Positions 5,289 to 60,660 of a stretch of 64,000 nt of DNA are shown one piece after another. Position 1 is the first letter of the stretch. Every line of letters starts with the position of its first letter. The notes below the pieces were generated by a model, which had not been told where the DNA came from, ran no database searches, and saw only the letters and a program-made list of their open reading frames with translations. Made by a program: the position numbers and the translations under genes. Source of the stretch: Octopus vulgaris (lineage: Eukaryota); the NCBI GenBank assembly GCA_951406725.2, contig OX597820.1:95852001-95916000 (forward strand), in the 5' to 3' direction.

Positions 5289-5680
5289 GGCGACTACCTG
5301 GCAGAAACGTTAGCACGCCGAGCGAAATGCTTAGCGGTATTTCATCTGCCGTTACGTTCTGAGTTCAAATTCCGCCGAGGTCGACTTTGCCTTTCATCCT
5401 TTCGGGGTCCATTAAATAAGTACCAGTTACGCACTGGGGTCGATATAATCGACTTAATCCGTTTGTCTCTCCTTGTTTGTCCTTTCTGTAATTAGCCCCT
5501 TGTATGTAGTAAAGAAATAGGTATTTCGTCTGCCGCTACGTTCAAATTCCGCCGAGGTCGACTTTGTCTTTCATAATTTCGGGGTTGATAAATTAAGCCC
5601 AAGTTGCGTGCTGGGGTCGATCTAATCGACTGCCCCCGTCAAAAAAATATTCGGGCCTTGTGCCTAGAGTAGAAAAGAAA
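5289..5680 (+). mobile_element. SINE family A, dimeric
   Basis: Two core copies separated by the ccgtttgtct..cccttgt..agtaaagaaatagg tail. Confidence 0.85.
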
Positions 5681-10317: not shown

Positions 10318-11007
10318 CTGATGACGACGACGATGATGATGATAATGAACGGAAGCTTTCGTGCAATGAGTGATGTCGACAGATTACACGTATCCAGAAA
10401 GAAAGGAGGAAGAGGACTTGTTTGTTGTGAAGATATGTGGGAGCTTTACCAGCCAATGCAGAAAGAATATATGCGGCGCCATGATAGCGTAGTAAAAATT
10501 GTTCACTGGGAGCTTTGAGAAAAATACGGTCTTGAAAAGGCTAGTCGGTGGTATGAGTAAATAACAGAAGGCTTTATAAAAGATGATGATGCTAAGATTT
10601 TATGGGACTTTATGTTACAATGTGACCGTGAAATTGAACATCGCAATGCAGATATGTTGGTGGTTAACAAAGTCACCAAACTATGCTTGATTCTATATGT
10701 GGCTTGACAATAAGGTTTGTGATATAGAATTTAAGAACATTGAGAGGAACGAACTCCTAGCATGGGATGTAAAATATTTGTGGGCAATACTTTGGTCCCA
10801 GATGTTTTCGGGCATTTGATACTATGAGTACCAAAATTCAAAGCCATTTAAAAACAATCAAGGGAAACATCAGGGTGGGGCACTTACAGAAAACATTACT
10901 TGGAACTGATAGAATATTTAGAAAAGTAGTTGACAACTGAAAGCCCGCTGGCTGTGGATAGCTGGCACCGGTATTTCCCCACCGGCAACAAATGCTGGTG
11001 ACAGATG

Positions 11008-11099
<92 letters not shown>

Positions 11100-11102
11100 A
11101 TA

Positions 11103-11142
<40 letters not shown>
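9963..11142. repeat. (TAA)n / (TAG)n / (GAT)n tracts interleaved with Dong-like and SINE insertions
   Basis: Tracts at 9963-10113, 10216-10347 and 11009-11142. Confidence 0.95.
10350..11008 (+). mobile_element. Dong/R4-like LINE, deleted 3' part
   Basis: SDVDRLHVSRKKGGRGL, KEYMRRHDSVVKIVHWEL, AKILWDFMLQCDREIEHRNAD and LQKTLLGTDRIFRKV motifs, flanked by (TAA)n. Confidence 0.8.
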
Positions 11143-11143
<1 letters not shown>

Positions 11144-11169
11144 CCTTACTACTAGGATTACAAGGCCTG

Positions 11170-11727
11170 AAATGGGCAAATGGAAGGCCCCGGGACCAGA
11201 TGGATTTCATGGCTACTGGATCAAAAGATTTGGTGAATGTCATGCACGAATAGCTGCGCAACTCAACACCTTGTTAAATACCGACCAAGTAACACCAGAG
11301 TGGTTGACATTGGATAGGACAGTGCTGTGCTTGAAAAAAAATCGAAAGAGGCAACACGGTAGACAATTACAGGCAGATATCCTGTTTGACTCTTATGTGG
11401 AAATTATTGATTGGAATGTACAAACATCTGGAAAAAATGGAATCCTGCAACATGAGTAGAAGGGTTGCAAGCGTAAGTGCAGTGATACCAAGGATCAACT
11501 CCTGATGGACAAAACTGTACTTAGAGACTGTTAGAGGAGGAAAAGTAGCTTAGCCTCGTCATGGATTGACTATTGTAAGGTGTATGATATGATCCCTCAT
11601 ATATCTTGGATAATGGAATGTATGAACCTATTTGGTATTGCATCGAATGTTGAGCGATTGCTTGGAAAAAGTATGGTGAATTGGAGGACCAAGAAAAAGT
11701 ACCAAGAAAAAGAGGGGGAAGAGGACT
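11170..11727 (+). mobile_element. Dong/R4-like RT N-terminal fragment
   Basis: [39 protein letters not shown] and WIDYCKVYDMIPH motifs, then a deletion to VPRKRGGRGL. Confidence 0.8.
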
Positions 11728-12350: not shown

Positions 12351-12422
12351 AAGATAGTAAGGCATTCTAAGTTCTTGAAGACGTTAGGTGGCAAATTTTC
12401 CAAAAGATTTGAACCAAGTTTT
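12351..12422 (-). CDS. 72-nt LRR coding exon of the same gene (downstream exon)
   Basis: Minus strand reads ttttttcttccttccag|AAAACTT...ATCTT|gtaagt, 72 nt, phase 2/2. It translates (L)KLGSNLLENLPPNVFKNLECLTI(L). It joins the 49548-49619 exon in frame (TT+A = Leu). Confidence 0.88.
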
Positions 12423-13730: not shown

Positions 13731-14068
13731 GAGGATAGCTAGCAGAATCAGTAGCACGCCAGGCGAAATGCTTAGCGGTATTTCGACTGCTGTTACGTTC
13801 TGAGTTCAAATTCCGCCGAGGTCAACTTTGCCTTTTATCCTTTCGGGGTCGATTAAATTAGTACCAGTTACGCGCTGGGGTCGACTTAATCCGTTTGTCT
13901 GTCCTTGTTTGTTCCCTCTGTGTTTATTCCCTTGTGGGTAGTGAATAAATAGGTATTTCGGCTGCCGCTACGTTCTGAGTTCAAATTCCGCCGAGGTCGA
14001 CTTTTCCTTTTATCCTTTCGGGGTCGATCAAATTAGTACCAGTTACGCACTGGGGTCGATGTAATCGA
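13731..14068 (+). mobile_element. SINE family A, dimeric
   Basis: Same architecture as 5289-5680. Confidence 0.85.
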
Positions 14069-15064
14069 GATGGATGGATGGATGGATAGTTAGAGATAGA
14101 CAGATAGACAGATAGCGCTGTGTATCTATGTATAAATAAGTTAATGTTTTCTCCCGTAAATTAGTATTTTAACCAATGCAGATGGATCTCCAGAGTAAAA
14201 ATTAAGTAGTAATGACTGTACGCTCAACTACTTCCTTCAAGATTTTGCCTAGTATAGCCACGATCCATTGACTGTAGTCAGTGATAGAATAAAAGGTTAA
14301 TATCATAGAATACGTTTTCAATTATATATATGTACGATAAGAAGATCAGGTTCACAATAGACTTCTGCATAATATAGTATAGGTAATGGATAATAACATG
14401 CAAATGTTTTTTCTAGCGAAATCCATTAAGCTGCAGAACGAAACGCATTACGTAAAGAGCAAAATCTTCCCAATTCTGCAAATGATATTGCGCCAAGACC
14501 ATTATTTACGATATGTAAGGTAGTTAGCTGTCAGAATCATTTGCGTGTCAGACAACATGCTCAGCGTTATTTGTTCTGGCTATTTATATTCTGAGCTCAA
14601 ATCCATTTACTCAGCTTCAACTTTTATCCTTTTAAGAGTCGATTAAAATAAATTATCAGTCAAGTACAGGGATCGTTGTAACTGATTTTTCCCTTCCCAA
14701 ATGTAGAGAAAGATATCTAAGACAAGTAGCGATTTAAATAAACTACAAATTGTGAATACAATGAGAGTCGTCATGGAAACTAGTCTTTCTTATTTTGAGC
14801 AGGACACAGCTTCTCAACAACAAAAATCAAACACTATTTTCAACTAGCAGAAAATCATATAGCTCATGCAAGCAAGTCTTCTAAGTATTAAGAAAATGCT
14901 TGTTCGTCTAGAAACATGTTATCACTGGATGTAAGTCAAACTTAGCTAGAACCAAATTATCTTTCTAAATATATCTCCCACAATTGTCTTTTTAAATATA
15001 TCTCCAATAATTATCTTTTCAAATATATCTCCAACATATATATTCCAATATATTATTTATCTAA

Positions 15065-15253
15065 GGCGGCGAAATGCGTAGCCGTATTTCGTCTGCCGTT
15101 ACGTTCTGAGTCCAAATTTCGCCGAGGTCGACTTTGCCTTTCATCCTTTCGGGATCGGTAAAGGAAGCACCAGTCGCGTTGTGGGGTCGATCTAATCGAC
15201 TACCTCCTCCCACAAAATTTCGAGCCCTGTGCCTAGAGTAGAAGAGAATATAT
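15065..15253 (+). mobile_element. SINE family A
   Basis: Core gaggtcgactttgcctttcatcctttcggg with tail gtgcctagagtagaag. Confidence 0.8.
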
Positions 15254-16113
15254 TATTTGTCTATATACTGTTAAACTTGTCCTTGAAAACTAGAATCCTC
15301 TGATGTTTACGTTATATCAGATGAAATATCTCTGTGTGAAAAAATAAACATGTATGGCTAACAGCACGTGTACGACACAGGTTCAATTCCAGGTTACGAC
15401 CTACAAAGGAATAGGAAATGTTTTGTTGCCTCGTCCTACACGTACAGTTCCCGAACAAAATATTTTACCGTTTCCTTACCGAATCAGTAAAATTTGATGC
15501 TAGCAGGTAAACTTCCGAAGAATAGGCTTCAGAGTAAATTTACTTCATCAGAGTAAATCTAAATGGAAATAAAGTGTGTGTAGTGTTTGTGTAGTTCATA
15601 ATAAAGCCGTTAGTCATTATGCTTGTACCAGTTATAAAAATTTAAAATAATTGTTTCTTAATCGCTTTGATTGTGTGTGTGTGTTTGTTTGTGTTTGTGT
15701 GTGCGTGTTAAGTGCTGGAACTTTCAGTTTTGAACCCTTCAGACCAGTAATAACAATTTAGTTGTTGATTGGTCAAAAGATCTCTATAGATTGCTATCTG
15801 GTGAAAATAATTGTGGGATTAATTTTAGGAGGCTACAATTTGGGGAAGGAATTATTAGGAAATATTGGATCAGTGCAAGGTTAGGAATTTGGTAATAGAG
15901 ACACAATAGAGATGTCTACAAAAGAAAATATGAGTCCGTTCACTGGGCGTGCAAGAAAATGAAACTTGCTAGTCGAGAGAAGCAGGAACGATTCCATAAA
16001 TTACGTTAATGTCACAGAATGTGAACCGTCTCTCGCGAATGATTGAAAGACTAATTGCCGCGAAGCACGCAAATAGGAACTTACTTTGGATGGTGTGTAT
16101 ATATATATATATC

Positions 16114-26977: not shown

Positions 26978-27662
26978 ATATTTAGAGTGCAGCGCTACAC
27001 TTGTAAGAAGCTGGCGGAAGATCTGCCTGGGGTTAAACTAGTAATAACATTAACCAGCCATATTGATGTAGCGATTAACTTTGCTTGTAAAGTTAATCGC
27101 TACTGAGATTTTACAACTAGCTGCTTCGCCTATTGCAAATCAGTGACCGATGGTCACTTTGTTTACTATATATTTATTGCTGGAGTGGACTCTGGCCATC
27201 TCTGGCGACCAGGTATTCGCGATTGAGGATGAGCAAACTAGATCGAAACCGAATCGCTTTCGCCACCCTGTCATCAGCTGGAGGATGGTAGGTGGTTCGC
27301 CGGCCGAAATACTCAGCGCTATTTCGTCTGCCGTTACATTCTGAGTTCAAATTCCGCCGAGGTCGACTTTACTTTTCATCCTTCCGGGGTCGATTAAATA
27401 AGTAGCAGTTACGCACTGGGGTCTATGTAATCGACTTAATCCCTTTGTCTATCCTTGTTTGTCCCCTCTATGTTTAGCCCTCTGAGGGCAATAAAGAAAT
27501 AAATATATATGTGCAGAGTGCAGTGCTGCAATATAACCAGCTGGCAGAAGATCTGCCTGGGGTTAAACTAGTAGTAACATTAAACAGCCATATTGATATG
27601 GCGACTAACTTTACTTGTTAGTATAATTACTACTCTCATTTCCTATTGAGATATTACAACTA
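26978..27662 (+). repeat. Tandem pseudo-LTR-like family with degenerate hammerhead (27219-27257), interrupted by a SINE
   Basis: 26978-27119 resembles 27505-27662. The motif reads gcga-TTGAGGA-tgagc..gatc-GAAAC-c-GAA-tcgc. The unit is homologous to the 43790-44400 units. Confidence 0.65.
27300..27502 (+). mobile_element. SINE family A with LINE-like tail
   Basis: Family A core plus cttgtttgtcccctctatgtttagccctctgagggcaataaagaaat. Confidence 0.8.
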
Positions 27663-42246: not shown

Positions 42247-42279
42247 GACACACACACACTCATGTATGGATATATTTTT

Positions 42280-42482
42280 TTACTTGTTTCAGTCATTTGA
42301 CTGCGGCCATGCTGGAGCACCACCTTTAGTCGAGCAAATCGACCCCAAGACTTATTCTTTGTAAGTCCAGTACTTATTCTATCGGTCCCCGCTAAGTGAC
42401 AGGGACGTAAACACACCAGCATCGGCTGTCAAGCAATGCTAGGGAGACAAACACAGACACACAAACACATACACACAAATAC

Positions 42483-42515
<33 letters not shown>

Positions 42516-42685
42516 TATATACGACAGGCTTCTTTCAGTTTCCGTCTACCAAATTCACTCACAAGGCATTGGTCGGCCCGGGGCTATAGCAGAAGACACT
42601 TGTCCAAGATGCCACGCAGTGGGATTGAACCCGGAACCATGTAGTTGGTCAGCAAGCTACTTACCACACAGCCACTCCTGCGCCT
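42280..42685 (-). mobile_element. SINE family B
   Basis: Near-identical reverse complement of 50503-50897. Confidence 0.88.
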
Positions 42686-45243: not shown

Positions 45244-46495
45244 TACGAGGGAGTACCCAAAAGAAACTGGAATATTTCCTTATGATTTTATTCACTTAAC
45301 TTTATATTTTCATACTTCTACCGCCTTCAACGTATTCTCCATTTGAAGCAGTGCATCGGTCCAGACAACTTTTCCACCGTTCGAAGTGATGCCTTTTAAC
45401 GCCTCTGTCGTTTTTTCTTTACCTCTTCAATATCTGCAAAACGTTTTCCTTTAAGGACTTTTTGCCGCAGGATGAAAGATCGGGTGAATTGGAAAGGGTA
45501 GGTAAGCGGGGTCATTTCATTTTTGATCAAAAACTGTCTCATACACAAGGTGGTATGCGCAGGCGCATTGTCTGCATTTCTGCACTCTGCACTCTCCATT
45601 TCGCCATTGATCGGGGCATTTTCGTCTCACAACATCTCGCAAATGCTTTAGAACTGCCAAGTAAAATGTCTGGTTAACAGTTTGAACAGGAGGAACAAAT
45701 TCTGCGTGGACAATTCCTTTCGCATCGATGAAACAAATCAGCATCGTCTTGTCATTGGACTTCACCTGATGCGCTTTTTGGGACGGTGGTGACATCCAAT
45801 GCTTCCATTAATTTCATTACTGCTTTGTTACCGGGTCGTAGCTGTAGCACCAGCTTTCGTCGCCAGTGATGACCTTCAAAAAAACAGAAAGGCTTGGATC
45901 AACTTCTAACTGTTCTTTCAGTTCATGACACTGTTGTTGATCTTTCGTGAGCGCGAGCGATACAAATCTTACTGCAACTCTTTTCACAATTCCCCTCTCA
46001 AATTTTGTTGGCAGGAGCTTCAGGACACACCAGTAATATCAACAAATTCATTAATTGTTCGGCGAGGATCATCCAAGATCAGTTCATATATTTTTGTGAT
46101 GTTTTCATTCGTTTGAGAAGTTGACGGTTGCCCTGACAGAGGTTGCTCTTCGAAAGCCTCTCGTGAACTTTTTTTCATGAACTTTTTTTCATTGCAATGT
46201 CCTTGTACGCTGTTTGAGACATGAAACTGTTTCTGCTGCTGTTTTCCCAGCTAGAAAACAAAATTTAACGGAAGCGCGCTGTTCCATCGTTTCAGCTACA
46301 GCAAAAATGACGAACAGGGGAGAAGTGCTGCAACACAAAGACGCACCACGTTGCAGTAAGACACCTCCGGAAGACGCCGGTCGGCAAACTGATTCCTGAG
46401 AATCGCATCAAGTGGCTGTTAGCGGTGTAAGCCTGAACTACAACAGGTTTGTCCCACAAAGAACGTTTCCAGTTACTTTTGGGTACGCCCTCGTA
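45244..46495 (-). mobile_element. Mariner (Tc1/mariner) element with both TIRs; transposase pseudogene
   Basis: 29-bp TIRs tacgagggagtacccaaaagaaactggaa / rc tacgagggcgtacccaaaagtaactggaa, with TA on both sides. The transposase starts MEQRASVKFCFLAGKTAAET at 46287 and has KTMLICFIDAKGIVHAEFVP and DNAPAHT motifs, frameshifted. Confidence 0.93.
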
Positions 46496-47351: not shown

Positions 47352-47516
47352 GTACGACGGGCTTCCGTCAGTTTCCGTCTGCCAAATACACTCACAAGGC
47401 CTCTGTTGGCCCCGAGGTTATAGAAGAAAACGCTTGTCAAAGGGGCCATGCAGTGGGACTGAATCTAGAACCGCGTGACTGGAAAGCAAACTTCTCACAC
47501 TAGCATGCCCTCGCCC
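47165..47516 (-). mobile_element. SINE family B, diverged
   Basis: Reverse-complement block cgacgggcttccgtcagtttccgtctgccaaat. Confidence 0.7.
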
Positions 47517-47688
47517 ATATATATGTGTATACATATATGTGTGTATGTGTGTGCGTGTGCGTGCATGTGCTTTATATTTTAATTGCACTTCCTTTTAGGA
47601 GCTCTGATGAAGCTATGAGGTGATGTACGAGCACTCAGCTCGGAGTGTACTCGCTTATAGCTTTACTTTGTCATTTATGCAATATCAT

Positions 47689-47739
<51 letters not shown>

Positions 47740-47804
47740 GTTGTCTATTGACTTTTTATACATGCTAGGCCACTGGTGGTGATATTTATAACGAGTATTC
47801 GCCA

Positions 47805-47839
<35 letters not shown>

Positions 47840-47991
47840 AAAAGCAATAAAGATTCAAGTTAATTTAAATGAATTTACTTGAATATGGTACCTAACTTAG
47901 ATGCACCAAAAAAAAAAAAACTATACTGTTTTAACAATACAATAATGTGGGGTGATTATAAGCGAGAAAGAAGCAACAAGAATGGATAGGT

Positions 47992-48082
47992 TTTTAGTAC
48001 AATCGTTTCATACAAGGACAGGCTTTATTGAAAGTTGCAAAAATTACAGCATATAAACGTGTCCTGTACTCATCAGCTAAAA
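47992..48082 (-). ncRNA. Type I minimal hammerhead ribozyme motif (mirror copy, sense to the host pre-mRNA)
   Basis: Reverse complement of 48778-48868 within the left arm of the inverted repeat; tcatcag at 48070-48076 with gtttc upstream on the + strand. Confidence 0.85.
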
Positions 48083-48777
48083 TACATGTGAGTTCTCTAG
48101 ACATCCTATTGGTTGAGGCTATACTCATGAAGTAGATAATTAAGTAACATAAACAGATTTCCAAAGTTCATTAAAGTTCTTTAAAGATGATGTACAGTCT
48201 TATCACAGAATTTTAAAAAAGTTTTAACAGCATCAAAGAGAAGGTGACCTAATCCATAGTGCACATATGAATTTCCAGAGATATGAAATAGCTACTGCCT
48301 CTTGTAAATAGCAGTAATGTGATTTTTGTGGCAAATACCTAATCATATAACAAGAATTTATCTCATTGTGTTCAACCATTGATAAATTTATCGCCTGTGA
48401 ATATGAAATCCCTCTTCATTTCTCTGGAAATTTACATCTACACCATTGGAAATTGTGCATCTATACAAAGGATTAATTCACCCTCTCTGTAATGATAATA
48501 AGCAGGAATTGAGACCCACCTCGTTGTGATTAACAATGGATAAATTTGTCGTCTGTGAGTATGTAATCCCTCATCATATCTCTGGAAATTCATATGTGCA
48601 CTATGGATTAGGTCACCTTCTCTGTGATGCTGTTAAAACTTTTTTAAAATTCTGTGATAAGACTGTACATCATCTTTAAAGAACTTTAATGAACTTTGGA
48701 AATCTGTTTATGTTACTTAATTATCTACTTCATGAGTATAGCCCCAACCAATAGGATGTCTAGAGAACTCACATGTA

Positions 48778-48868
48778 TTTTAGCTGATGAGTACAGGACA
48801 CGTTTATATGCTGTAATTTTTGCAACTTTTAATAAAGCCTGTCCTTGTATGAAACGATTGTACTAAAA
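48778..48868 (+). ncRNA. Type I minimal hammerhead ribozyme motif (intact core)
   Basis: ttttag-CTGATGA-gtacaggaca[loop]tgtccttgtat-GAAAC-gatt-GTA-ctaaaa. Stem I is ttttag/ctaaaa, stem II is gtacaggaca/tgtccttgtat, stem III is short AC/GT. Predicted GUA cleavage after 48862. Confidence 0.85.
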
Positions 48869-49547
48869 ACCTATCCATTCTTGTTGCTTCTTTCTCGCGT
48901 ATATATATATATATATATATATATATCACAGTACAATTACATATATGATGTGTTTTAATTTTCTTTTATGTTTGTAAAACTGCAAGACTAACAAATTAGA
49001 ACTATAAAACACTAAACTACTTATTCTGTTCTTATAATCACCAAAGATTCCAATCGTATTCAGATGTTTTAAAGCTATATAAATTCTCCGAATTGCATTT
49101 GAATTAGTTGAAAAAAATAGGACCAATCTACTGATTGAAAATGAATTCGTTAAGTATAATAGGAATTGCCGAAACAAGGATCATTTCAAAATTTACCTGT
49201 TAGAGTTACATTTAAACATGACTTATGAACTCATTGATTAATAAAATTAGAAATAACTTCGACATTTTCAGTTTTGTATTTTCATGTGCATATTTGGTTA
49301 TGTAAGACATAGGGGGATGATATTCCTCTCTCAGGTAGAATTCTACTTTTGATCGGATAAAGTTTATTACTGCTATTTATCTTATCGACTTTTGTAGGAA
49401 AAAGTCAGAAGATGTTCAAAATGGTGAAGTTTCGCAGTTAAATACCGAAACGCATTTATTTCGATGCTCCATTGTCATGATAAGAAGCAACTAACAAATA
49501 AATAAACTACAATAAAAGAAGAAAATATAAAAGTTGTAAAAACTTAC

Positions 49548-49619
49548 AATTCTTTTAGTTTTGGAAGGTTAGCAAATGCATAGTCTGGAAGTTGGTAGAT
49601 GTTGTTTACACTGAGATCT
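49548..49619 (-). CDS. 72-nt LRR coding exon of a host LRR protein, probably an LGR-type (LGR4/5/rickets-like) GPCR ectodomain
   Basis: Minus strand reads ctctcttcttgcag|AGATCTC...GAATT|gtaagt, exactly 72 nt, phase 2/2. It translates (L)DLSVNNIYQLPDYAFANLPKLKE(L), a full LxLxxNxIxxLPxxAFxxLxxLxxL repeat resembling LGR4/5 LDxSMNNIxQL. The family call is from recall, not a search. Confidence 0.88.
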
Positions 49620-50502: not shown

Positions 50503-50897
50503 GAGTGGCTGTGTGGTAAGTAGCTTGCTAACCAACCACATGGTTCCGGGTTCAGTCCCACTGCGTGGCATCTTGGGCAAGTGTCTTCTGCTATAGCCCC
50601 GGGCCGACCAATGCCTTGTGAGTGGATTTGGTAGACGGAAACTGAAAGAAGCCTGTCGTATATATGTATATATATGTATTTGTGTGTTTGTGTGTCTGTG
50701 TTTGTCCCCTTAGCATTGCTTGACAACCGATGCTGGTGTGTTTACGTCCCCGTCACTTAGCGGTTCGGCAAAAGAGACCGATAGAATAAGTACTGGGCTT
50801 ACAAAGAATAAGTCCCAGAGTCGATTTGCTCGACTAAAGGCGGTGCTCCAGCATGGCCGCAGTCAAATTACTGAAACAAGTAAAAGAGTAAAAGAGT
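50503..50897 (+). mobile_element. SINE family B
   Basis: Full-length copy with the A/B-box-like head gagtggctgtgtggtaag..ggttcagtcc. Confidence 0.88.
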
Positions 50898-59011: not shown

Positions 59012-60660
59012 ATAATCCTGTATGGAGGACGGCCCTGACAGCAAACGGAAGAAGTTTAGGGACGGTATAAATTAGGAAGGGCATCTTCCAAGGGGACCGC
59101 CTGTCCCCACTGATCTTTATACAATGCTTGATACCACTGACTCTGATTTTGAGGAAAGCAAAAGCCGGGTATGTATTAAGGAGCCGACAACAAAAAGTCA
59201 ACCATTTGCTATTCATGGATGACCTCAAACTTTATGGTAAAGATGAAGCCCAAGTCGGTTCCCTCCTTGATTCGGTGTATACATTCAGTGCTGATACCAG
59301 AATGGAGTTCGGACTGAGAAACTGTGGTGTGTTAGTATTGAAAAGAGGTAAGATCAAATGTACGGAGGGACTAACGATATCGTTGGGGGAGGTTATGAAG
59401 AAGATAGAAGAGACGGGCTATAAGTACTTTGGGATTTTGGAAACGGATAAATTGATGGAGAAAGAAATGACAGAAATAATTAAGCTGGAGTACTTACGCA
59501 GACTCAGACTGATTCTTAAGTCGAAATTAAATGGAAGGAATATGATAGAAGCTATCAACACCTAGGCGGTTTCACTCCTTAGGTATGGAGCAGGAACGAA
59601 CTAAACAACTTAGACAGAAAGACAAGGAAGTTGCTAACTAGATATGGGACACTCCACCCAAAAAGTGACAGAGACAGACTGTATGTACCAAGAAAAAGAG
59701 GGGGAAGAGGATTTATTGGATGTGAACACAGCATTAGAGCAGAAGAAAACAACATAGCATGGTATGTAAAACAATCCACAGAACAGCAATTACTAGAAGA
59801 AGGTCAGGCTTGTGTAGGATGAAAGAATACAAAGAAAAAGCACTATAAATGCAATTGAAAACGAACGAAACTGAAATTAGGTGGGTAAGTAATGCATGGA
59901 CAATTTCATAGGGATGTTGAAGATAAGAAAGCAGACAAAAGATGGCTGTGGATGACTAAAAGTGATTTAAAACCGGAAACGGAGGCACTAATCTGTGCTG
60001 CCCAAGAGCAAACACTGAAAATAAACTACATAAAATACAGAATAGACAACTCACCAGAAAGTGAGAAGTGCAGGATCTGTGGGCAAAACGGTGAAACTGT
60101 ATGGCATATTACCAGCCAATGTACGCCTCTAGCCCAGAAGGAATATAAGAGATGCCACGACAATATAGCCAGGCTTGTCCTTTGGACACTTTGCAACAAG
60201 TATGGATTTGACAGAGCAAAAATTGGTACGACCACAAACCTGAAGGCATTATCGAAAATAGAAATGCAAAGATCTCATGAGATTTTATGATTCAGTGCGA
60301 CTATGAGATTGAGAACAGGAAGCCGGACAAGGTCTTAATTGAGAAAGAAAACAAACTATGCTAGATCATAGACATAGCATACCCAGCTGACAAGTATGCG
60401 ATAAGGAAGAAAGAAAAGTCGAGAGATATGACATGTTAGTTTGGGAAGATAAGCAGTTGTGGTTGATGAAAAAGGTAGCAGTAGTAACAATAATTGTTGG
60501 GGCCCTGGGAACAGTGAGCAAAAATCTCGGGAAGTACCATGGACAAATAGGGGCTTCAATAAGGGTGGAACGCTTGCATAAAACAGTACTGCTTGGAACT
60601 GCTCGAAAGGTGGTAGTGAACAGCTGACACTGTAGTATTTCTCCAGCGTTAGAAGCTGGG
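59011..60660 (+). mobile_element. 5'-truncated Dong/R4-like LINE (RT, CCHC and RLE), pseudogenised
   Basis: GIFQGDRLSPLIF, HLLFMDDLKLY, RLYVPRKRGGRG, CRICGQNGETVWHITSQC, RKPDKVLI and IVGALGTV motifs; preceded by (GAT)n. Confidence 0.9.

Follow-up and report, generated by a model that had tools for sequence, protein, structure and literature searches.

A palindromic intronic insertion in Octopus vulgaris with paired hammerhead motifs, probably the truncated product of a young Hydra-clade Penelope-like element

Inverted pseudo-LTRs (pLTRs), a tail on one arm, palindromes at the junctions and asparagine-rich inserts are described for Penelope-like elements (PLEs) in the accessible parts of Arkhipova et al. 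(PMC3846280) and Craig et al. 2021 (PMC8557442). For the Hydra clade, the accessible text of Craig et al. gives as features an RWK motif, the change of DKG to DKT, lack of N-terminal GxKF/Y, a CxCX5C motif, a CxxC/CxH pattern, insertion into (TA)n and a length generally <3 kb. The part of its supplement at hand includes Hydra-1_Obim of Octopus bimaculoides, an element of 2507 bp with a different hammerhead. In the literature searched, mostly without subscription papers, Craig et al. 2021 was the only source found on Hydra-clade elements of octopus. In the Anolis Poseidon element PAc, two internal reverse-transcription start sites bound the tail, and in vitro no difference in start site was seen between the target strands (Frangieh et al. 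2024, PMC11167929, accessible sections). PLE ribozymes with a self-complementary loop are dimer-dependent and cleave poorly alone according to the accessible text of PMC4209133; weak, dimer-dependent PLE ribozymes are also covered in the available portions of PMC6765202 and PMC7229834.

Here we analyse a window of 64,000 nucleotides of Octopus vulgaris DNA (GCA_951406725.2, contig OX597820.1, positions 95,852,001 to 95,916,000). A first-pass annotation of this window had pointed to a 325-bp inverted repeat, about 99% reverse-complementary, with a hammerhead ribozyme in each arm. We consider it very probable that this structure is one truncated insertion of a young Hydra-clade PLE with two back-to-back ribozyme-bearing ends, likely produced when two coupled rounds of reverse transcription took place at a cut (TA)n run, and likely inert for the host.

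The insertion and its element family

The two arms (47962-48286 and 48574-48898) differ as reverse complements by 3 mismatches in 325 nt, as the first-pass annotation had seen, and are the longest of 1871 inverted pairs in the whole window. Each of the three differences is private (1 of 95-135 arms). The insertion (47838-48899) is larger than the arm pair, with (TA)n bordering it on each side, and by comparison with the natural copy L031 it consists of a 124-nt tail, the left arm and a 612-nt right-hand copy (Table 1). The tail, which is found on the left arm only, had been missed. Judged by its sequence, the whole is a single truncated Penelope-like retrotransposon insertion. A ~160-bp internal tandem repeat lies directly upstream of the ribozyme (window 48360-48600).

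Table 1. Features of the insertion and of the neighbouring host exons (window coordinates)
Feature	Position	Strand	Basis or remark
Next 72-nt LRR exon of host gene	12351..12422	-	directly after the previous exon's peptide in P0125
(TA)n target microsatellite, left border	47807..47837	.	sequence
124-nt tail: element sequence after the pLTR (5' UTR ahead of ORF)	47838..47961	-	matches L031 pLTR-ORF junction
Left arm: final 325 nt of pLTR, 5'-truncated, sense in host pre-mRNA	47962..48286	-	99% to L031 pLTR
Type I hammerhead motif, predicted cleavage after 47998	47992..48082	-	motif scan, folding
AATAAA in helix II 3' strand, 26 nt before predicted cleavage site	48024..48029	-	right-arm equivalent 48831-48836
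Right copy: final 612 nt of element, 5'-truncated; 'spacer' plus right arm	48287..48898	+	97% to L031
'Spacer': upstream pLTR sequence of right-hand copy, 287 nt	48287-48573	+	~160-bp internal tandem repeat inside
Type I hammerhead motif, predicted cleavage after 48862	48778..48868	+	motif scan, folding
U/GU-rich 12-mer 3' of cleavage site	48878..48889	+	identical in 12/12 aligned copies, divergent subfamilies
Single G absent from element at that place, then right (TA)n run	48899..48926	.	sequence comparison
72-nt LRR exon of host LGR4/5-like gene, upstream of insertion	49548..49619	-	peptide found in protein P0125

That the inversion is an artefact of assembly is hardly credible. No listed contig from four DNA runs spans the insertion's own junctions, since contigs break at TA runs; nevertheless, joints of left arm to right arm occur in contigs of all four independent runs, the arms are set apart by three sites and by the tail, the host exons are in order on both sides, and the same architecture with differing joins recurs at >50 loci.

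As first suspected, the arm derives from a Penelope-like pLTR: it matches the pLTR of ORF-bearing copies (L031, L051). L031 (on C4) has the order pLTR, ORF, pLTR, followed by an inverted truncated pLTR with the tail extension. The PLE pattern of pLTRs from partial tandems, an inverted truncated copy and an optional tail fits L031, L051, L057, L059 and the window. An unbroken 976-codon frame in L051 contains RWK (position 64), DKT (151), YRDD (382), CxCX5C (837), YIG (871), CxxC (934) and CxH (964). By these motifs and by 370 homologues (mostly unnamed; the named ones include Argonauta proteins, 40-43%), it is a single ORF with reverse transcriptase (RT) and C-terminal GIY-YIG endonuclease. A Pfam search of the protein gave nothing significant, RT domain included.

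Several traits place the element among its relatives. The hammerhead motif in the pLTR agrees with EN+ Penelope-like elements, and L051 has the Hydra-clade motifs RWK, DKT in place of DKG, the CxCX5C linker, and CxxC and CxH around conserved E and N. The N-terminal GxKF/Y was not found in L051, the sole GxK[FY] match (584) lying within the Asn-rich insert; CX2-5CxxC, searched in the same protein, gave no match. The Hydra-clade preference for (TA)n holds across the examined copies. The element unit of 4600 nt exceeds the 'generally <3 kb' of Hydra-clade elements, a length that is descriptive, not diagnostic, in Craig et al. 2021. By motifs, and with reference Hydra proteins compared by eye, we assign the element to the Hydra clade of PLEs and regard it as a new family within this known clade, separated by eye from Hydra-1_Obim. 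Several natural copies have frames of 940-984 codons, and the family may therefore still be active.

The protein encoded at L051:4790-7720 carries Asn-rich inserts between RT and endonuclease (28% Asn over residues 520-830), and the 1.58-kb 3' UTR of the element has a long C/T-rich tract (L031:2560-2730). A sister Hydra family, with 48% amino acid identity to this one and an 842-codon frame in L148, was also found (L143-L170); it has a long helix II with a bulged AATAAA and an AC-rich tail of ~70-90 nt. The flanks of L144, L145 and L147 contain several more CTGANGA...GAAA motifs followed by (TA)n, which are probably the ends of further Penelope-like families.

All counts given here refer to young copies, as loci were picked by high identity, RT content or among the first 100 exact matches. 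Searching the genome with the arm gave 1419 candidates, and the 40 that were scored were 99-100% identical without exception, which supports the youth that had been claimed for the repeat. The linkage to PLE ORFs that this search had been proposed to reveal is there as well, with many copies and pLTRs flanking the RT/GIY-YIG ORF. A 28-nt ribozyme word has 128 exact matches in the genome, and at least 30 outward-pointing pairs occur among the first 100 listed. Among 74 loci with this word, the element is present on both strands in 57 and an intact core on both in 41. The junction of tail end and (TA)n has 439 exact matches; the sister family has 1132 to its own ribozyme word, similarly paired. 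Back-to-back pairs are thus the usual insertion form of the family and the shape in the window is ordinary, given the 30 pairs, the 41/74 loci intact on both strands and the published inverted pLTRs of PLEs. A non-LTR retrozyme, i.e. a non-autonomous array of head-to-tail tandem units of 150-450 bp, was considered and rejected, because the copies stand head-to-head and are part of an ORF-bearing element.

Other repeats in the window are dispersed ones, likely octopus SINEs (5316-5648, 13757-14140, 15063-15271, 27298-27506, 42273-42677 and 50503-50890), of which one inverted pair, 7.8 kb apart, flanks the palindromic insertion. LINE-type RT fragments (10962-11459, 59071-60290) and a mariner-like fragment (45517-45807) are also present.

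The hammerhead motif and a hexamer in helix II

Each arm reads UUUUAG / CUGAUGA / helix II / GAAAC-GAUU-GUA / CUAAAA and points outward. A pattern scan covering both strands of the window gave the motif at these two sites only, in agreement with the intact type I hammerhead motifs reported at first. The type I core (CUGANGA, GAAA, NUH) and three helices are present: helix I of 6 bp, an extended helix II (~60 nt) and a helix III of only 2 bp (AC-GAUU-GU). The label 'minimal' used by the first-pass annotation does not suit this geometry. We rejected the minimal PLE hammerhead, which lacks helix III and has a helix I of 4-5 bp, since helix III is present here and helix I has 6 bp. The annotation had also proposed a search with a hammerhead model; Rfam returned no hammerhead match at gathering score over the window, nor with E<=10 across 47500-49500; the ~60-nt length of helix II is the probable reason.

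Helices I and II show compensatory changes across 12 copies from about four subfamilies. With the structure drawn by hand and the 12 rows related, 90.4% of cells are paired and 7 pairs show double changes, as against 30-47% of cells in slid controls. The base of helix II is G-U (G10.1-U11.1) in this subfamily and G-C in 7/12 rows. Core changes among young copies number 2 of 2177, compared with 1.1%; we discount this conservation, as half of the core lies within the word by which many loci had been selected. The helix III segment is self-complementary in three variants and also in the sister family, and a 4-nt loop would pair with itself in this way by chance in 14% of cases. The catalytic fold of the monomer is predicted to be rarely populated (P about 0.001, i.e. 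about 0.1%). The ribozyme looks dimer-dependent, because a self-complementary helix III segment is a mark of the dimer-dependent PLE ribozymes.

The 3' strand of helix II contains AATAAA or ATTAAA in 12/12 aligned copies and in the sister family, 26 and 17 nt before the cleavage site. In this stretch, a hexamer of this kind has a background rate of 5-13% per site, and the lineages behind its conservation are few and related. This conserved hexamer inside helix II is modestly new; it may equally be a structural bulge. The Hydra ribozymes in File S2 of Craig et al. lack the long helix II. A Penelope polyadenylation signal inside a hammerhead was not found in the literature searched, mostly without subscription papers; the review retrieved concerns Clec2 in its available part. 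As a speculative reading that we think improbable, the pLTRs would nest a working poly(A) site in the ribozyme, with AAUAAA/AUUAAA in helix II as signals and the U/GU-rich tract after the cleavage site, and the RNA could end by self-cleavage or by polyadenylation. Coupled twin priming would then supply most new insertions with an antisense arm that masks both signals, so that copies could survive in introns. If real, such a nested signal would suggest why PLE ribozymes can cleave poorly and how genes come to tolerate palindromic insertions that mask themselves.

Tails, truncations and the course of insertion

Both outer ends were classed at 58 of 88 loci. One tail is present at 57, no tail at 1 and two tails at 0 (p=2e-16 against independent choice of ends), and inspection by eye of the other 30 loci showed no two-tailed insertion. 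The tail is ~120 nt in this family. The sister family has one long and one short end in 20/20 scorable pairs (18/20 fetched pairs that could be scored plus two further loci), the long end reaching 108-136 nt and the short end 22-46 nt past the cleavage site.

Arms within one insertion differ by 0.44% (69/15709 sites, 49 pairs), compared with 1.87% between insertions, so that both arms of an insertion derive from one source. In the pLTR body, no allele distinguishes tailed from untailed arms (lowest p=0.046 among 54 columns), which gives no indication of an origin from separate pLTR variants. The longer arm varies: the untailed arm is the longer one in 22/57 pairs, the opposite holds in 19/57, and 5 pairs have a tail-only arm. 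In 16/50 pairs (the 57 minus 7 that are tail-only or full-length), both arms are truncated within 15 nt of the same point, with a permutation mean of 1.75 and a maximum of 8 in 20000. The joins between arms overlap by at least 1 nt in 31/50. The tail of ~120 nt on exactly one arm in 57/58 and the excess of same-point truncation are modestly new observations.

Both fixed ends adjoin TA-like words in the element (TTATA and AATATAT), which could pair with a (TA)n primer. At the untailed end, the first base beyond the pLTR is G in most copies, where the element has T, and 41/64 begin GTATATA; this G (window 48899, and family-wide) possibly reflects a template jump or inherited read-through. The tailed end likewise ends in G ahead of (TA)n, and by eye the junction G does not obviously track the longer arm.

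In the account that we favour, the element's RT/GIY-YIG protein would nick both strands in (TA)n. Each target strand would prime once, in a coupled fashion and at a fixed position of the RNA: one where the pLTR ends, 36 nt beyond the ribozyme site, the other ~120 nt further on. Synthesis of both cDNAs would break off early, and their 5' ends would be fused to each other through microhomology or fold-back. The ribozyme would be of use to the element itself, with tandem pLTRs likely providing the two halves of a dimer. The observed part of this account comprises family membership, copy number, target, boundaries, the single tail of each insertion and the common source of the arms; we infer the order of events from genomic products. 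Twin priming fits the two internal start sites of Anolis PAc (PMC11167929); in vitro, no strand difference in start site was seen there, so a strict one-tail rule is not directly predicted by that system.

Another route for the same element is less likely. The cDNA primed at the tail end would fold back and copy itself; endonuclease cleavage of the resulting duplex at the TA-like end of the pLTR (CGC|TTATA) would then leave a single tail. This route accounts deterministically for one tail per insertion and accounts for the 16/50 same-point truncations. Craig et al. (PMC8557442) explain the tail by endonuclease resolution, and Arkhipova et al. (PMC3846280) explain junction palindromes by self-priming. 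If the tailed strand folded back, however, the untailed arm could not become the longer one, as it is in 22/57 pairs, and the 5 pairs with a tail-only arm also speak against this route. Since endonuclease resolution of a hairpin intermediate could likewise leave one tail, it remains a rival to twin priming for part of the cases.

The host intron and the closest known systems

The insertion lies in a 37-kb host intron (12423-49547). The first-pass annotation had placed it inside an intron of a minus-strand LRR gene, with an exon about 650 nt away; both exons are found in order in P0125, an LGR4/LGR5-like protein, and the nearer one is 650 nt from the right arm. A downstream exon matches octopus proteins named LGR4/LGR5-like at 96-100%. 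The host gene also has two near-identical 144-nt LRR exons on the minus strand (L127:6186-6329 and ~2.3 kb further), 43.7 and 46.0 kb left of the window (G000:C7). Protein P0124 has both in tandem and P0125 the second only; they are possibly tandem or mutually exclusive exons.

From either strand, the antisense arm is transcribed first. In the host pre-mRNA it is predicted to pair with the ribozyme arm, and in the folded whole insertion 90/91 ribozyme nucleotides are paired with the other arm (duplex -148.6 kcal/mol), so the proposed capture of the ribozyme holds as a prediction. The paired intron would not self-cleave and any ADAR editing would be a by-product. The duplex as ADAR substrate is plausible, by analogy, but generic.

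The first-pass annotation went further and suggested that cleavage of the LGR4/5-like pre-mRNA could be gated by editing or folding kinetics, which would free the ribozyme from the duplex. Both ribozymes do have intact cores, and the host transcript would contain the left one in sense orientation; editing of intronic repeats is known from squid (PMC9068888), and conserved intronic hammerheads are known from amniotes (PMC6155905). We nevertheless regard this idea as very improbable. The palindrome is one among dozens in young copies alone, with many more in the sister family, and arms only 0.9% apart with private changes leave no time for, or sign of, adaptation. The duplex (-148.6 kcal/mol) stands against -11.2 kcal/mol for the catalytic fold, itself rarely formed by the monomer, and the 2-bp helix III has a self-complementary loop, as in PLE ribozymes that cleave poorly alone (PMC4209133, accessible text).

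Inosine in the hammerhead core would be expected to impair catalysis. In simulations that treat inosine as unable to pair, editing of 25% of adenosines leaves the duplex at -96 kcal/mol on average and the five core adenosines intact in 17.5% of 200 trials; at 50% the values are -57 kcal/mol and 3.5% of 200 trials, and at 75% the core is intact in 0/200. The core adenosines are thus lost long before the duplex opens, and an editing gate is therefore unlikely; in this model, editing would sooner inactivate the ribozyme than set it free. Genomic copies show no ADAR footprint (singleton A>G 55 vs T>C 82, element sense, 219 aligned pieces). No paper combining hammerhead, A-to-I editing and inverted repeat was found in the literature searched, mostly without subscription papers. 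The flank of the insertion has 17-19 substitutions in 1065 nt in two other DNA runs. This exceeds the divergence between the two arms and hints at an insertion that postdates the splits from those runs; such youth argues against a domesticated intronic ribozyme. On the folding prediction, the host gene is likely unaffected by the insertion. Because the palindrome is the usual shape of the young element's insertions genome-wide, we read it as probably harmless intronic transposon debris and not as an editing-controlled gene switch.

The locus itself matters little, since the genome has many insertions of this kind. As a natural record of how Penelope-like elements insert, the family is useful: its copies are young, intact frames occur naturally, and the tail is long and easy to score. 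Its near-absolute one-tail rule and the excess of same-point truncation set limits on models of priming and joining at the two target strands, which the 2024 in vitro study left open (PMC11167929).

Compared with the Hydra-clade PLEs in the accessible text of PMC8557442, the octopus family shares the single frame of RT and C-terminal GIY-YIG with RWK, DKT, CxCX5C and CxxC/CxH, the (TA)n targeting and a type I hammerhead near the 3' end; an inverted truncated copy is listed there for Penelope-13_HM. It differs in its 4.6-kb unit (generally <3 kb there), its Asn-rich inserts, its 1.58-kb 3' UTR and a helix II region of ~60 nt, where all Hydra rows of File S2 have short hairpins. With Penelope of Adineta vaga and Drosophila virilis (PMC3846280, accessible part), it has in common head-to-head pLTRs, one tail, junction palindromes, microhomology and Asn-rich ORF inserts, whereas the tail is ~120 nt here and 30-40 there, and target-site duplications are unreadable inside (TA)n.

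In Anolis PAc (PMC11167929), too, the tail lies between two fixed ends, nicking and extension affect both target strands, and the hammerhead is weak and possibly protein-assisted; the start sites of PAc are not homologous to the target, whereas the ends here abut TTATA and AATATAT and are more widely spaced. The short helix III and self-complementary loop recall the dimer-dependent hammerheads of PLEs and animal retrozymes in the available portions of PMC4209133 and PMC7229834, from which the octopus motif differs in that helix III is present, in its G10.1-U11.1 (in this subfamily) and in the lack of a tandem retrozyme array. Like the amniote RECK and CTCL hammerheads (PMC6155905), it is intronic and of type I; the amniote hammerheads are ultraconserved loci that occur singly, whereas this one belongs to a young high-copy insertion and is paired with its own antisense copy.
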